DNA of 64,000 bases from Bdellovibrionales bacterium (GTDB lineage Bacteria; Bdellovibrionota; Bdellovibrionia; Bdellovibrionales; JAGQZY01), in assembly GCA_031426555.1 (NCBI GenBank), contig JANPLN010000025.1, positions 64,001 through 128,000 on the forward strand, written 5' to 3'. The notes under the pieces were generated by a model that saw only the letters and a list, made by a program, of their open reading frames with translations, did not search any database and had not been told where the DNA came from. Both the position numbers and the translations under genes were made by a program. The first letter of the stretch is position 1. Each line of letters opens with the position of its first letter. Of the stretch, positions 57,776-63,905 are shown piece after piece.

Positions 57776-59125
57776 ATGGTGAAATTTTTCACTTTATTGG
57801 CAATAATGTTCTCGAGCATTGAAAGCGCGAGCGCTGAGGGCTCGATGATTCGCTTGCAAACGGGTCAATCTCAGCAGAGTTACGAAAGCGAGCACCACGT
57901 AAAACTTAAAATGGTCTCTCAATATCTTCGACTTTACGAAGTTCTTAACGACACAGTTTTTTTCAACATCGACACGCCACCCTTTCGGCGTCAGTCCATC
58001 AAGCCGACACGCTTAGCGAATGTCATTCCGAACCACCCTGTTCAGATGCGTTCCAACGCTGCCATCGACGTGTTATCAATTACTCCGTTATCTACAGATC
58101 CGCTTCTCCCCCAACAGTGGAATTGGACCCTCGATAAAGACTCTGTCGGAATCAACATTGCCAAAAGCTGGCAACAGTTTGGTACCGGTGGAAAAAACGC
58201 ACTCAAACAAGATATCGTGGTTGCCATCGTGGATGGGGGCTTTGACTTCCGTCACCCCGATTTGTCATTCAATCGCTGGCGAAACTGGAGCGAAGTTGCC
58301 GGCAACGGCATCGACGACGACGGTAACGAGATCGAAAGCGCTGATCACGGCACTCACGTTGCGGGCCTCATCGGTGCCCGCGGCAATAACAATCGCGGCA
58401 TCGCAGGTGTGAACTGGCGCGTGAAAATTATGTATGTGTCCATGGGCCAGGCTCTGGCCGACACCGCGTCCACCATGCGCGCGTACTCGTATATTTTAAA
58501 ACAAAAGGAGCTGTGGCTGGCCACAAACGGTAAAAAAGGCGCCAACGTGGTCGCCATCAATTCGAGCTTCGGCATTGATGCCGAAAAATGCTCAAACAGC
58601 GATTTTGTAATTTGGAACGAAATGTTTAACAGCCTGGGGGAAAAAGGAATTCTTTCGGTGGCTGCCACGTCCAATTGGAACATCGATGTGGACACCTTTG
58701 GCGATATTCCAACAAGCTGTGAGAGCCCGTTTTTGATTTCCGTTACAAATAGCACCCGCAGCGGCCTAAAAAGCGATGCAGGCTTTGGCACCACCGCCAT
58801 CGATCTTGCCGCTCCCGGCGAAGAAATCCTCTCCACTGGCGAGCGACAATTTAGCGGTGATCCCTCACCCTACTCCGCGCAAACAGGAACTTCGTTTTCG
58901 ACTCCGCAAGTTGCAGGCGCTGTGAGCTATCTTCACAGCGTGATGGCAGTCGAGCGTTTGTCGCAAAAGCCCTCCGACTTGGCTCTTGAGATTAAAGACG
59001 CTTTGCTGCGCACAGTAACGCCCACTATGGATCTTAAAAACTTCACGCAATCTGGTGGAGTCTTAAATGTTCACGCAGCAAGCCTTGTTTTTAAGCAATC
59101 AAACGAGGTTTTAGCGTCTCGTTAG
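57776..59125 (+). CDS. Subtilisin-like (S8) serine protease
   Basis: VAIVDGG, DHGTHVAG, DLAAPG, GTSFSTP; signal peptide. Confidence 0.88.
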   Translation: MVKFFTLLAIMFSSIESASAEGSMIRLQTGQSQQSYESEHHVKLKMVSQYLRLYEVLNDTVFFNIDTPPFRRQSIKPTRLANVIPNHPVQMRSNAAIDVLSITPLSTDPLLPQQWNWTLDKDSVGINIAKSWQQFGTGGKNALKQDIVVAIVDGGFDFRHPDLSFNRWRNWSEVAGNGIDDDGNEIESADHGTHVAGLIGARGNNNRGIAGVNWRVKIMYVSMGQALADTASTMRAYSYILKQKELWLATNGKKGANVVAINSSFGIDAEKCSNSDFVIWNEMFNSLGEKGILSVAATSNWNIDVDTFGDIPTSCESPFLISVTNSTRSGLKSDAGFGTTAIDLAAPGEEILSTGERQFSGDPSPYSAQTGTSFSTPQVAGAVSYLHSVMAVERLSQKPSDLALEIKDALLRTVTPTMDLKNFTQSGGVLNVHAASLVFKQSNEVLASR

Positions 59126-59204
59126 AAGCAGCGCATCCCCCCTAGGTACTTAGTACCTTTTATGGTTATCATCGTCGCTCCCATAGTTTATCAAAGGAGT
59201 GACG

Positions 59205-61217
59205 ATGAAGTTTTTAGTTTTTACGATGCTGCTATTTTCGCAGTGGGTATTTGCAAATGTTGAGACGCCAGAGAAATCTACAGTAACCCGTGACACCCTG
59301 ATGAAGGGTTTAAAAATTCCCGAAAAAAGAGATTATACTCTGAGTAAGAAGATCACTCCTTGCGAAGATTTCCACAAATACGTGTGTTCTGAAGTGGAAG
59401 GCAAGTTTAAACTTCCTGCCGATCGTGAACGCTGGACTTTTTCGTTCACGGATATCGCAGAAAAACTTTTGCACAGTAAAAAACAATTTTTTAAATCCAT
59501 CCAAAACTACACACCGCAAACTGAGCGCGGCCAGCAGTTCAAAGATGTTTACCTTGCGTGCATGAATCAAAAATCTTCGACCAGCGAAGAAAAACAAAAA
59601 ATCATCGACGAAAAAAATCTCATCAGCAAAGTGGCTTCTTGGGATGAACTCTCGAATCTCGCCCAATCTCGCATCGATCAAGGGTTGCCAAGCTTTGTCG
59701 ACTTTTTTGCCGAAGCGAACAAAGAAAACCCATTAAAAAACGATGCGTTTTTGTCGGCAGACATGCGCACTCTCCCCGAGCGCAGCTACTACGAAAACAA
59801 AGCGCTGATGAAAGACTTCGAAAAGCTTCTGGTTGATTTTTTTAAAACCGTAAAAGCCGACAAACCCGAGCAGCGGGCCAAATGGGTCATCGACTTCGAA
59901 ACTCAATTGGCGATGAAGTACCCGCTTCCTAAAGAGATGCGCGAGCGCTTTACGCAAAAACGCGACATCGATAAAAAAGAATTCTTAAAAAAATATCCAA
60001 ACCTCAAAATGGACCGCTTTATTGCGCGGTTACCTGCAAAAACAGTTCTGATTGATCTGGTGCCTGAGTCCAACGATTTTTTTAACACAGCTTTAGCAAC
60101 GATGCCGCTTGAGCAACTCAAAAGCACGTACATGTTCCACAGCATCTCGGGCTACCTGGACGACTCGAGCCCGACCTTTTTTAACAAGTACTTTAAATTC
60201 CGCCACAAATACCTGGGTGGACCTGCTCAACGCTCGCCGCGCGACGAACGCTGTACAAAACTTGTCATGAGCAACTTTGGAATGGAATTGGATTACGAAT
60301 TAATTAATATTCTTTTTCCAAATTTTCCGCAGGAGCGTATGATCACCGTTGGCGAAAGTGTTCGCAAATCCATCATTGCCGGCCTCGAAAAAAACACCTG
60401 GCTTGAAAGATCCACTCGCAAAGAGGCGATCAAAAAAATTGAAAAAGCAAAACTCTATCTTGTTAAACCGCAAACCGACAAAGATTGGGATTTTGTCCCG
60501 ATGCAAAAGTACGCGACCAACGCTCCTTATAGCAACATGGAGCTGTACCGCAAAACGCGTGTCGAGAAGCAACTTAAAGAGCTTTCTGAAGAACGCAATC
60601 CAAGCCGCTGGGAGTACATGTCTCCCCTGGTTGTAAACGCTTACTACAATCCACCGGATAACAAGTTCGTGCTTCCGCAGGGAATTTTGCAATTTCCATT
60701 TTTCGATCCCGGCGTGACTGATATCGAAAACATTGCCGCCATCGGTGCAGTTGTTGGCCACGAGTTAGGTCACGGTGTTGACGACCAAGGTTCGCAGTAC
60801 GATTACCAAGGCAAAGTGCGAAAGTGGTTTACTGATAAAGACCTCGAATCTTTCAAAGCCCGCGGCGCAAAATTTGTGGCACAGTTTGATAAAATCGGCC
60901 ACGACGGAAAGCTCACCCTTGGCGAAAACATCGGCGACCACGTGGGCCTGACCTTTGCTTACAATGCGGCCTTCCCCGATGCTCCGAAAGCTACCGTCGA
61001 CGACAAACAGAAGTTTTTTGTCGCCTACGCGCGCATGTGGTGCAACGTTGCTACGCCTTCGTATATCACTCGTCAGCTAAAAACCGATCCGCACTCTTTG
61101 GGCAAAGAGCGTATTAACCAGCAAGTGATCCATATCGATGGTTTTTACGAGGCTTATAATTGCAAAAAAGGCGACAAGATGTTTGTCGATTCCGGCGATC
61201 GCATTCGTATTTGGTAA
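59205..61217 (+). CDS. M13 (neprilysin/PepO) metallopeptidase
   Basis: PCEDFHKYVC, VNAYY, GHELGHG, GENIGD, DPHS. Confidence 0.95.
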   Translation: MKFLVFTMLLFSQWVFANVETPEKSTVTRDTLMKGLKIPEKRDYTLSKKITPCEDFHKYVCSEVEGKFKLPADRERWTFSFTDIAEKLLHSKKQFFKSIQNYTPQTERGQQFKDVYLACMNQKSSTSEEKQKIIDEKNLISKVASWDELSNLAQSRIDQGLPSFVDFFAEANKENPLKNDAFLSADMRTLPERSYYENKALMKDFEKLLVDFFKTVKADKPEQRAKWVIDFETQLAMKYPLPKEMRERFTQKRDIDKKEFLKKYPNLKMDRFIARLPAKTVLIDLVPESNDFFNTALATMPLEQLKSTYMFHSISGYLDDSSPTFFNKYFKFRHKYLGGPAQRSPRDERCTKLVMSNFGMELDYELINILFPNFPQERMITVGESVRKSIIAGLEKNTWLERSTRKEAIKKIEKAKLYLVKPQTDKDWDFVPMQKYATNAPYSNMELYRKTRVEKQLKELSEERNPSRWEYMSPLVVNAYYNPPDNKFVLPQGILQFPFFDPGVTDIENIAAIGAVVGHELGHGVDDQGSQYDYQGKVRKWFTDKDLESFKARGAKFVAQFDKIGHDGKLTLGENIGDHVGLTFAYNAAFPDAPKATVDDKQKFFVAYARMWCNVATPSYITRQLKTDPHSLGKERINQQVIHIDGFYEAYNCKKGDKMFVDSGDRIRIW

Positions 61218-61256: not shown

Positions 61257-61412
61257 CGTGATTGCAACGCAGGTCGCAATCTTCTCTGGCAACATTCTAA
61301 CCTCAGCATATTTTACATTGTTACAAATGCGGTATTTACCTTTGAAAAGCGCAACCCCATATTGCCATTCTGCATTTCGGGGATTTGGAGAAACGCAAAA
61401 CAAGGGGTTGCT

Positions 61413-63905
61413 ATGCGTGTGTTGGGGTTTTTGGGGATTTTACTTTCTTTTTCATTGGCGTCTGCAAACATCGAACTCGATCTTGGTTTAACTTACAACC
61501 CCGACACGGGACGTGTGCTGGATGCTGAAAGTCGCCCTCTTGACCTTCTTCTCGATCGTGGACTGCGCGCTCAAGATATCAAAATTACAGAAATGGCTGT
61601 TCGCGAAGGAAAGAATCTTCTCCTCATCCACGCTAACTATTCCTTTTTTCTTTTTCAAAAAACAAATGCTGTGATTGGTTGGACGATAGTGGAAACTGCG
61701 AGCAATGAGTTCGCAAAAACGTATCGACAAAACGTTTTTAGCCTAAAAATTAACCACTCTGAAAAGTTCGGGATCTATGTACTGACAAGTCTATCGGGAG
61801 CACCAGGGCAAAGTTCTTCATATTATTTCAACGAAAACCCTTCCTTGAACCCCCAGGATACAGCTCGATTAGAGGACGCCGTTAAAAACTGGCTAGATTT
61901 TCACTTTAACACCACTCCCCTTGATGCCTACTTAAACGACAAAGTAGGCGATCTGGGTTTGCGCACTATCGCTACAAAGATGGAAGACGTTCACAAACCG
62001 ATAGTCAACAACGGCAAACCCCAAATCCCAACAATCCCGGTTATAAACGAGCGCGGTGAGCGTACTGATGGCTGGACACTCGTGGAATCCTTTACGTCTG
62101 ATTATTTAGAGGATGTGAAAAACGAAACCTACGAACAGATTGATGAATTGCGTGTCATCGAAGATCGAATTCTTAAAAACTTTTTAAAAGTCGAAGGTGG
62201 AAGCGTAAAACTTCTAGCCCCAGCTGGAGTTGGAAAATCCGTCCTTATGCGCAGAATTGCTTACCGCCTGCGCGTTGGCGATGTTCCAGAATCTCTTAAA
62301 AAATATAGAGTGCGTTTCTTTTCTGCTGCCTCCCTTGAGGCGGGCTCAAAGTTTGTCGGCACCATCGAAGCGCGAATGAATGCTATGATTGAAGTCTCAA
62401 AACAAGTGCCCTTACTTTGGTTTGTTGATGAGGCCCATAGTCTTGTGGGCGCAGGAATTTCGGAAGGTCGCCCCACAAATATTCTGCAATCGTTAAAGCC
62501 CTCGCTCGCCTCAGGCACCGTGAAGTGGCTAGCTGCTTCTACCCCCAGCGAGTGGGCGGCAGCCTTCGCAACGGATGATGCCATGGATCGACGTTTTGTT
62601 CGCGTGGATCTCACTATACCCGATAAAGAGTTGTTGCTAAAAATTCTCAACAAATGGCTGCTGAAGTACGACAAAGCTCCTCTCGCTGAAGCTCTTCTTG
62701 AGAAAGTTATTTTTTATTCCAACGAGTTTGGAGTTGAAGGAGCTCAACCCTCAAAAGCGACGTTGCTGTTAAATGAAGTTTACGCAAACGCCGATTTTAA
62801 AGATCAAAAATCGCCGATCACGGTGGAGAATATTCAAGAAGCCGCTCAAGAACTCTACAACGTGAATCCTTCGGAAATGGAAGTGGACAAAATCGCCGAA
62901 CGCTTTTCCGTTCTACAAAATAAACTGCAAGAAATTATTGGGCAGGATCCTGCCAAAAGTGCGATCATGGCGCAAACCGTGCAAATCATGGCCGGAATGC
63001 ACGACCGCACAAAGCCGCGCTATCGTTTTATGTTGTCGGGAGACAAAGGCCTTGGAAAAACCGAAATCGTAAAGCTTTTTGCCCAGGCTATGAATCTTCC
63101 AGAGGGTCGCATTGTGATGAGCGAATTTGCATCGCCACACGAAATTGAATCTTTTAAAGCGCGTATCGCACAACTGGTGCGCATCCACCCAATGACCGTG
63201 CTGTCTTTTGATGAGTTCGAAAAAGCGCACCCCAAAGTTCAGCAAGCTCTTTTGGGAATTTTAGAGAGCGAATCCTTCACTTATACACTCCGCGAAGGCG
63301 GCGTGATTCGTTCTGCAACAGTGCAAATAAAAAATACCTCGGTATTTGTACTGACCAATGCCGGCGCCTCCTACCTCGCGTCCCGCCAGCTTGCAGAGCC
63401 AAAAGCGCCAAAGATTGGCTTTGCTCTCCCCGGCGTACAAGCCGAAAAAGCAGACACCCGACCTCCGTTTTATGAATGGGAATTCCGTCGGGCCATCGTC
63501 GCCGACGGAGTCGACTCCTACGTGCTGGATCGCATGGATTCAGTCATTCCATTTTGGTATTTTAGCCCAAAAGAATTTGCGCAGATTGTTTACATGCACA
63601 CACAAAAAATCATCGACGGGATCAACAAAAACTCCGCAACGCAATTTTCCTTCCACAACCTCAATCAGTTCGCCGCGGATTTTACAAGGCGCAATTTTTA
63701 CCCCGAAGCTTCAGCCCGGGATGTTCTGCGCACACTCAATCAATACATTCGCCAAACCCTAGCCTCCATCGCCCTCAACAACCCCGGCGAAAAAGTAAAG
63801 CTCGGCTGGCACGAAGGAAACCTGTACCTGATGGACGAAGCTCAAGTCGCCGAAAACGAACCCACAGCACCACCGCAAACCTTGAGCTGCAAAGAACTGT
63901 TTTAA
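61413..63905 (+). CDS. Clp/Hsp100-like double AAA+ ATPase with N-terminal signal peptide
   Basis: APAGVGKS/FVDEAH, pore loop KFVG, RRF; GDKGLGKT/FDEFEKAHP, LTN; N-terminus MRVLGFLGILLSFSLASA. Confidence 0.85.
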   Translation: MRVLGFLGILLSFSLASANIELDLGLTYNPDTGRVLDAESRPLDLLLDRGLRAQDIKITEMAVREGKNLLLIHANYSFFLFQKTNAVIGWTIVETASNEFAKTYRQNVFSLKINHSEKFGIYVLTSLSGAPGQSSSYYFNENPSLNPQDTARLEDAVKNWLDFHFNTTPLDAYLNDKVGDLGLRTIATKMEDVHKPIVNNGKPQIPTIPVINERGERTDGWTLVESFTSDYLEDVKNETYEQIDELRVIEDRILKNFLKVEGGSVKLLAPAGVGKSVLMRRIAYRLRVGDVPESLKKYRVRFFSAASLEAGSKFVGTIEARMNAMIEVSKQVPLLWFVDEAHSLVGAGISEGRPTNILQSLKPSLASGTVKWLAASTPSEWAAAFATDDAMDRRFVRVDLTIPDKELLLKILNKWLLKYDKAPLAEALLEKVIFYSNEFGVEGAQPSKATLLLNEVYANADFKDQKSPITVENIQEAAQELYNVNPSEMEVDKIAERFSVLQNKLQEIIGQDPAKSAIMAQTVQIMAGMHDRTKPRYRFMLSGDKGLGKTEIVKLFAQAMNLPEGRIVMSEFASPHEIESFKARIAQLVRIHPMTVLSFDEFEKAHPKVQQALLGILESESFTYTLREGGVIRSATVQIKNTSVFVLTNAGASYLASRQLAEPKAPKIGFALPGVQAEKADTRPPFYEWEFRRAIVADGVDSYVLDRMDSVIPFWYFSPKEFAQIVYMHTQKIIDGINKNSATQFSFHNLNQFAADFTRRNFYPEASARDVLRTLNQYIRQTLASIALNNPGEKVKLGWHEGNLYLMDEAQVAENEPTAPPQTLSCKELF

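Follow-up and report, generated by a model that had tools for sequence, protein, structure and literature searches.

The gene at 61413-63905 (+ strand) of a 64,000-nt stretch of a Bdellovibrionales genome (assembly GCA_031426555.1, contig JANPLN010000025.1; the whole stretch is called the window below) encodes a ClpA-like double-ring AAA+ ATPase that is predicted to be exported, retains the catalytic residues of both its AAA+ modules and ends in a short tag, C-x-x-L-F, holding its only cysteine. It belongs to a clade of at least 125 distinct sequences, most of which combine a signal peptide and a variable N-domain with a complete set of catalytic residues and a terminal cysteine. The Clp/Hsp100 ATPases of bacteria are regarded as cytoplasmic enzymes, and ATP is scarce in the periplasm. 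Weighing the sequence evidence given below, we put the chances at about even that this ATPase is an effector delivered into the cytoplasm of prey, which would grip its targets through the first AAA+ module (D1) and dock on the prey's ClpP. The features of the gene and its product, in window positions and with their basis in brackets, are:

61403..61407, + strand: Shine-Dalgarno-like AGGGG, 5 nt ahead of the ATG (conserved in G001 and G003)
61413..63905, + strand: gene for the 830-amino-acid (aa) ClpA-like double-ring AAA+ ATPase, predicted to be exported (open reading frame, Pfam, NCBIfam, sequence comparison)
61413..61466, + strand: predicted Sec signal peptide, residues 1-18, predicted cleavage after ASA, without twin arginine (sequence, leader in the full-length close homologues, family charge bias, AxA-type sites)
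61467..61997, + strand: variable N-domain with beta-meander sheets like 2-3 propeller blades and two helices, putatively target-selecting (structure model)
62085..62882, + strand: AAA+ module D1, without ClpB-type middle domain (motifs, alignment)
62217-62240, + strand: D1 Walker A (alignment)
62343-62360, + strand: D1 pore-1 loop GSKFVG, residues 311-316 (alignment)
62421-62438, + strand: D1 Walker B (alignment)
62586-62597, + strand: D1 arginine finger (alignment)
62895..63830, + strand: second AAA+ module, D2 (motifs, alignment)
63039-63065, + strand: D2 Walker A (alignment)
63117..63155, + strand: deletion site of the D2 GYVG pore-1 loop, about 12 residues shorter than in canonical Clp (family alignment; pairwise gap against ClpC)
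63207-63233, + strand: D2 Walker B (alignment)
63273..63326, + strand: lengthened D2 pre-sensor-1 beta-hairpin (alignment spans; hairpin in the model)
63411..63422, + strand: KIGF, residues 667-670, a ClpP-docking-type motif in the loop after D2 sensor-1 (alignment with canonical Clp)
63525-63539, + strand: D2 arginine finger (alignment)
63711-63725, + strand: D2 sensor-2 (alignment)
63888..63902, + strand: C-terminal tag CKELF (C826 invariant in close homologues; family and genome-wide counts)

Family members were sampled by a profile search of 1.84 billion representatives, of which the best 150 matches were listed. The AAA cores of 171 rows (6 short rows had been dropped beforehand) were aligned and grouped with FastTree into 126 family rows (125 distinct), 37 canonical Clp proteins and 8 others outside both groups. 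An IQ-TREE analysis of a 58-row subset, with groups taken from the first tree and with long branches, united the 32 family rows with 100/100 support; their placement beside ClpA-type proteins was weakly supported (95/54). The middle region spans 61-71 residues in 123 of 126 family rows, as in ClpA-type controls and thus without the long coiled-coil, which agrees with a ClpA-like origin of the family.

Pfam recognizes two AAA modules in the query, the tandem arrangement of class I Clp/Hsp100 ATPases, and Walker A, Walker B, sensor and arginine-finger residues are kept in both. In 91 of the 115 complete family rows none of the ten tested catalytic residues is altered (D1 intact in 99, D2 in 107), at about 22-38% identity. 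A first-pass annotation, made from the sequence letters, had spoken of two intact AAA+ modules; this stands for the catalytic residues and fails for the D2 pore-1 loop GYVG, which is deleted in the query and present in none of the 126 family rows, against 37 of 37 canonical controls. The D2 pre-sensor-1 span measures 32-36 residues in most of the family (113 of 126 rows) and 25 in each of the 37 controls, and these two shared indels, loss of the loop and lengthening of the hairpin, define the clade independently of the tree. The D1 pore-1 loop is present in the query in its K-aromatic-x-G form. For E. coli ClpA, the accessible part of PMC8666677 assigns substrate engagement to the D1 pore loops and gives the D2 pore loops the largest part in the unfolding of stable proteins. 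With the D2 loop lost and the D1 loop kept, the query is therefore unlikely to be a strong general unfoldase, and a low-force disassembler or feeder would fit better. The label "unfoldase" given in the first-pass annotation has accordingly become doubtful for the whole family.

The frame of the gene is open throughout 61413-63905. A start downstream of the signal peptide had been considered as a way in which the export reading might fail; both a downstream and an upstream start (an in-frame TTG at 61362 would lengthen the protein by 17 aa) are rejected on the N-termini of homologues together with the ribosome-binding site at ATG 61413, whose AGGGG is kept in two genus-mates of the query genome. 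The query has a basic n-region, a hydrophobic h-region and an AxA-type cleavage site by our own heuristic. A basic, hydrophobic and small-residue leader is likewise found in all 6 full-length close homologues (37-87% identity) despite their diverged N-domains, the seventh, P0004, being an N-terminally cut fragment. Signal peptides were called by our own hydropathy rule, not SignalP, and the rule gave a false signal call on a truncated ClpP open reading frame. Of the 106 family rows that reach 750 aa, 81 have a hydrophobic leader by this rule; for canonical Clp proteins the figures were 2 of 36 and 2 of 113. In 65 of these 81 leaders the residues ahead of the h-region are more positively charged than those behind it, with the opposite in 5, and an AxA-type cleavage site occurs in 79, so that export with cleavage is favoured over an N-out anchor, in line with the classic Sec signal first proposed. 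The catalytic residues kept alongside this leader lend comparative support to the original suggestion that the protein must reach a place with ATP: if ATPase chemistry is kept and the protein is exported, the destination must contain ATP.

Were the leader an uncleaved N-out anchor, or the start downstream after all, the protein would be a membrane-tethered cytoplasmic specialist like ClpV. Both ATP and a ClpP of the same cell would be at hand there, the signal peptide was called by our hydropathy rule, not SignalP, and 25 of the 106 long family rows fail that rule, although many of these look truncated or mis-started. The positive-inside charge bias, the AxA-type sites and the ribosome-binding site conserved at the ATG speak against tethering, as do the terminal tag and the depletion of cysteine (0.13% vs 0.47% Cys), both shared with signal-peptide proteins. 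ClpV is a cytoplasmic Clp paralogue specialized to disassemble a complex, with its N-domain choosing the substrate, and the query would resemble it in being a specialist. The type VI secretion system sheath (PF05943), searched for with an E. coli control that matched, has no match in the 100%-complete host genome, and a ClpV role was rejected on this ground. We give the tethered form very little probability.

The host genome (3.14 Mb) contains two further Clp ATPases, one ClpA-like (C37) and one ClpB-like (C2), which makes the ATPase of the window the third; the putatively exported protein is not the housekeeping copy, as the genome keeps normal ClpA-like and ClpB-like genes. Its relatives of solved structure are ClpC, ClpA and ClpB, and its best NCBIfam match is ClpA (TIGR02639) with 192.9 bits, far below the cut-off of 993.15. 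With ClpA of ClpAP (PDB 6w1z, 1ksf) it shares two AAA+ modules, the lack of a long middle domain, the D1 pore-1 loop, the IGF loop and the catalytic residues. It departs from ClpA in its predicted signal peptide, its longer pre-sensor-1 hairpin and its terminal CxxLF, has neither Clp_N nor the D2 GYVG, and falls in a separate clade. Against ClpV/TssH (TIGR03345) it scores 161.5 bits with a cut-off of 884.95, and the TssH control cP0117 keeps GYVG; from ClpB/Hsp104/HSP101 (149 bits, cut-off 1232) it differs by having an IGF loop and no long middle domain. The query would work like a ClpA with an exchanged N-domain, yet by cut-off and by defining features it is a member of neither ClpA, ClpB nor ClpV.

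The N-region had been described as unlike a Clp N-domain, and this holds: Clp_N (PF02861) has no Pfam match in the query, and residues 18-195 were modelled confidently (predicted local distance difference test, pLDDT, 88.7) and mainly as beta-sheet, with the beta-meander sheets accompanied by two helices. The best structural match of the N-domain reached Z 7.5, its root-mean-square deviation being 3.7 over 110 aligned residues; none had Z of 8 or more, and these generic propeller-blade matches are not diagnostic. Foldseek gave no match at E <=0.001 and the ESM Atlas no usable match for this domain, and a search of the latter with the ATPase core returned generic AAA clusters only. Similarity between N-domains was detected in just 375 of 6555 family pairs.

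KIGF, beyond which the first-pass annotation had seen no obvious IGF loop, occupies the loop position where 30 of the 37 canonical controls carry an IGF/IGL-type motif. The motif itself is therefore confirmed, and its reading changes: it is the canonical ClpP-docking loop at its normal position. IGF occurs in the D2 loop of 44 of the 115 complete family rows and in the last 45 residues of 13 rows (2.2% expected), although two of the 13 look like chance, and 11 of these 13 have none in the D2 loop. Docking on ClpP seems to be selected in about half of the family rather than universally. In P0165, P0170, P0171, P0177, P0179, P0203, P0234, P0257 and P0267 the motif lies at or near the C-terminus with none in the D2 loop, as if relocated. 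The host genome has a single ClpP gene, adjoining ClpX and Lon, and no exported copy of ClpP was found in it; a second weak PF00574 match was rejected as a partner, being an unrelated protein of 386 aa. The exported IGF motif is thus left without a partner of its own outside the cytoplasm. IGF loops bind the H-sites of ClpP, and acyldepsipeptides (ADEPs) activate ClpP via the same sites, as described in the part of PMC9035409 available to us.

The terminal SCKELF noted at first lies at 63885-63902, with C826 as the sole cysteine of the query. A cysteine within the last 20 aa is found in 100 of 126 family rows, where about 3 would be expected from the low Cys content of the family, and the family consensus of the tag is C-x-x-L-[L/F]. 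Across the host genome, 17 of 2373 open reading frames have C..[LIV]F no more than 5 residues from the end (1.7 expected); 12 of them are among the 790 frames called as having a signal and the other 5 among the 1583 not so called (p 0.003), and three of these five have leaders that the hydropathy rule missed. A slightly wider pattern gave 18 C-terminal matches (2.7 expected), 13 of which look real by eye. The same tag also occurs just after signal-like h-regions (30 matches, 7 expected), where 24 were retained after removal of 6 lipobox-like or doubtful ones, and one of them reads CKELF, identical to that of the query. The tag thus sits at either end of the mature protein in about 37 signal-peptide proteins of the host genome, mostly Cys-free: 23 of 29 tagged proteins are otherwise Cys-free vs 102 of 483 untagged soluble signal-peptide proteins (p 2e-10). 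The genome-wide count therefore substantiates the earlier suggestion of a shared CxxLF tag and extends it to the post-signal position in about 24 proteins.

A Pfam scan of 15 C-tagged candidates named a superfamily 2 (SF2) helicase, two amidoligases (one with ATP-grasp), a PI3/4-kinase-like protein (weak), an FAD oxidoreductase, a nucleoside hydrolase, a 5'-nucleotidase, a GH2 protein and a trypsin-like protein; an ankyrin protein is also among the tagged cargo. The helicase (L026:2001-6407, host genome C65) has 1468 aa, a signal peptide, an intact Walker A and DEAH and a single Cys, in the terminal tag. N-tagged proteins with Pfam names comprise an S9 peptidase and, mostly as weak matches, DUF559 (Vsr-like), EEP, a ParB-like nuclease, transglutaminase-like and Gln-amidase. 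The 24 N-tagged proteins lie at host loci L200-L222, with three pairs of adjoining genes (C15, C23, C66). P-loops were not enriched among tagged proteins by a Walker-A regular expression (1 of 31 vs 8 of 619, the 8 being likely false signal calls or chance motifs).

In other genomes, eight amidoligase loci were compared by eye: two without a leader are untagged, and six with a leader have a Cys near the mature N- or C-terminus. The C-terminal tag showed no excess in G130 (240 kb; 1 match, 0.9 expected) or G161 (400 kb; 1 match, 1.3 expected), samples too small for the tag frequency there to be judged; N-terminal matches numbered 5 and 4, of which about 3 and about 2 look real. G130 also has a GNAT protein among its tagged proteins.

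A foreign cytoplasm is suggested by an IGF motif that has no exported ClpP and by tagged companion proteins that depend on ATP, nucleic acid or acetyl-CoA. Bdellovibrio is described, in the accessible part of PMC2797640, as sending Sec-exported degradative enzymes into the cytoplasm of its prey. Under the effector reading, the protein would be exported by Sec and cleaved after A18, as predicted from its sequence and from conservation in the family, and would stay an inactive monomer in the ATP-poor periplasm of the predator. A carrier or export step shared with about 36 other tagged proteins may then read the tag by its lone cysteine and its L-F face. In the prey, ATP would drive assembly of the hexamer, the variable N-domain would select the target and the D1 pore loops would engage it. 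Without a D2 grip the machine would probably act as a low-force disassembler or feeder, while its IGF loops may occupy the H-sites of the prey ClpP, open the protease and redirect it to prey proteins. For ADEPs, PMC9035409 in its accessible part describes such opening of the protease by H-site occupation; ADEPs are small molecules, whereas the proposed opener would be a protein hexamer with ATPase activity.

More broadly, and more tentatively, these data may reflect an undescribed Bdellovibrionota route into the prey cytoplasm that reads a C-x-x-L-F/L tag at either end of otherwise Cys-free, Sec-exported cargo. One class of this cargo would be a Clp motor that has been rebuilt without the D2 grip and with exchangeable target domains, hijacking prey ClpP like a protein ADEP; we regard this wider proposal as possible, with the balance somewhat against it. 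We know of no account, in the literature searched, of how Bdellovibrio-like predators move enzymes from the periplasm to the prey cytoplasm. A full-text search, with subscription papers mostly outside its reach and supplements excluded, found no description of an exported Clp family or a CxxLF tag, and the accessible parts of PMC13689555 and PMC12419801 make no mention of an exported Clp family. Among its secretion genes the host genome has four secretin genes and one VirB10-like gene.

More than 100 divergent signal-peptide Clp members with conserved catalytic residues would imply ATP-driven machines placed in another cell, or where ATP is unexpected. The bi-terminal CxxLF tag would provide a five-residue handle for fusion, mutation and pull-down and a means of listing candidate effectors from sequence, among them the 16 N-tagged proteins lacking a clear Pfam match as candidate new effector domains. 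The family would also be a natural test of double-ring Clp function without D2 pore loops.

Several observations weigh against delivery into prey. Only 87 of 122 family rows retain the aromatic residue of the D1 pore loop. In 60 of the 115 complete rows, among them those of the near relatives P0007, P0121 and P0123, IGF is found in neither place, so that docking on ClpP cannot be the core job of the family, and the alternation between loop and tail is not significant as an exclusion (Fisher p 0.13). For those 16 of the 24 N-tagged proteins Pfam gives nothing or marginal matches only, and the 5'-nucleotidase, GH2, trypsin-like and S9 peptidase proteins would work outside the cell. The predatory lifestyle of the host bacterium is presumed, from taxonomy only. 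Finally, a related signal-peptide Clp system in other genomes adjoins TLC-type ATP/ADP transporter genes, which suggests that ATP could be supplied outside the cytoplasm.

Those enzymes and the TLC-type transporters bear on a different account, in which the ATPase is exported and works in the predator's periplasm, at its surface or in the bdelloplast space, with ATP leaked from dying prey or exported by the predator; it would remodel the envelope or released proteins, and the tag would be an anchor or folding handle. An extracytoplasmic role suits some of the tagged enzymes, and other signal-peptide Clp pairs (L017, L018) stand in operons with genes for a VWA protein, a trypsin-like protease and a TLC-like transporter. 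A title cited in PMC13689555 names an ATP transport system of Bdellovibrio. In the host genome, TLC matches are absent by Pfam and tblastn, the Pfam search being weak since no control matched. The IGF motif has no exported ClpP partner there, and the helicase, the nucleases, the kinase-like protein and the GNAT among the cargo depend on nucleic acids or on cofactors located mostly in a cytoplasm. We consider this account unlikely, though likelier than the other alternatives.

The operons in question (L017:3360-12953 of G027, L018:479-9849 of G039) have two signal-peptide Clp-like ATPases flanking a VWA protein, followed by a trypsin-like protease and 1-2 TLC-like genes. Their Pfam TLC match is on one L018 gene only, and the ATPases have neither GYVG nor a terminal tag and fall outside the query's clade. 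They could represent a periplasmic ATP-dependent protease with its own ATP supply. A similar cluster (L016:2272-12135, G027) encodes a 921-aa signal-peptide Clp-like protein, a trypsin-like protease, a 354-aa protein with a terminal Cys tag and a protein of 1212 aa that has three P-loops and retains loops of GYVG type. At L022:4154-8455 (G034) a protein of 1433 aa with a leader and a terminal Cys tag has three AAA modules together with a Peptidase M41 (FtsH-type) domain, possibly a self-contained exported ATP-dependent protease.

A terminal cysteine resembles lipidation motifs, and the protein might instead be bound for a eukaryotic host, for example a protist, and enter its cytoplasm or one of its organelles, with the tag as a host-directed lipidation or sorting signal. 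The PI3/4-kinase-like and ankyrin proteins among the tagged cargo would suit this, and the genomes are uncultured, their lifestyle not established. The IGF motif points to a ClpP partner, the same motif at the mature N-terminus of about 24 proteins does not fit C-terminal prenylation, and the tag cysteine is at -5 or further in, not at -4. A eukaryotic destination has little probability in our view.

Plasmodium HSP101 has a signal peptide of its own. In the translocon of exported proteins (PTEX; PDB 6e10, 6e11), HSP101/ClpB2 is an Hsp100 outside the cytosol in an export context and a precedent for Hsp100-driven effector export, as far as the accessible part of PMC7355975 describes it. By analogy, the ATPase could be machinery and not cargo, a translocon motor threading CxxLF-tagged proteins, for which its two intact ATPase sites would be suited. 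HSP101, though, is ClpB-type fixed machinery with a middle domain and with D2 pore tyrosines that hold cargo; the query is bacterial, variable and stand-alone, lacks the D2 loop and itself bears the cargo-like tag. Its presence is patchy even within the genus, its neighbours are not conserved and its N-domain is highly variable. We assign a translocon motor very little probability. Another likeness is to the phytoplasma AAA+ ATPases and FtsH paralogues with a predicted host-facing position, for which the part of PMC6981957 available to us proposes action in an ATP-containing host compartment. These are membrane-anchored, single-ring, FtsH-type proteins of uncertain topology, in contrast to a double-ring Clp with a predicted cleavable signal. 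Neither precedent matches the architecture of the query.

Effector delivery would also be compatible with how the family is distributed, since stand-alone genes, patchy presence and highly variable N-domains look effector-like. The family was present in 20 of 200 other genomes of the phylum, across 11 families, where 4 candidates per genome were scored, and in 12 of 150 genomes of the class. Within the genus, the ATPase occurs in G001 and G003 and as a fragment in G002, and it was not found in G004 and G005. Outside the phylum, a search at E 1e-122 turned up no member among 151 genomes from the phylum of a Gammaproteobacteria record and none among 121 from that of a Caldimicrobium record, with 6-8 candidates per genome scored and without a positive control. 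Canonical Clp dominated the results of a narrow pattern scan of genome contigs, in which 1 of 80 loci belonged to the family. No conserved operon was seen across 21 family loci, nor across 11 more; the genes stand alone at unrelated loci. One record, L073, is 85% identical to the query ATPase.

Just upstream in the window (57776-61217, + strand) lie genes for an S8 subtilase and an M13 metallopeptidase, both with leaders. These neighbours are not conserved beside distant members of the family. Their order with the ATPase is kept in G003, which has an additional 254-aa gene between the M13 gene and the ATPase. At another locus (L047:3957-5030, G116), a 357-aa single-AAA protein with a leader and a terminal Cys tag is encoded directly after the family gene.

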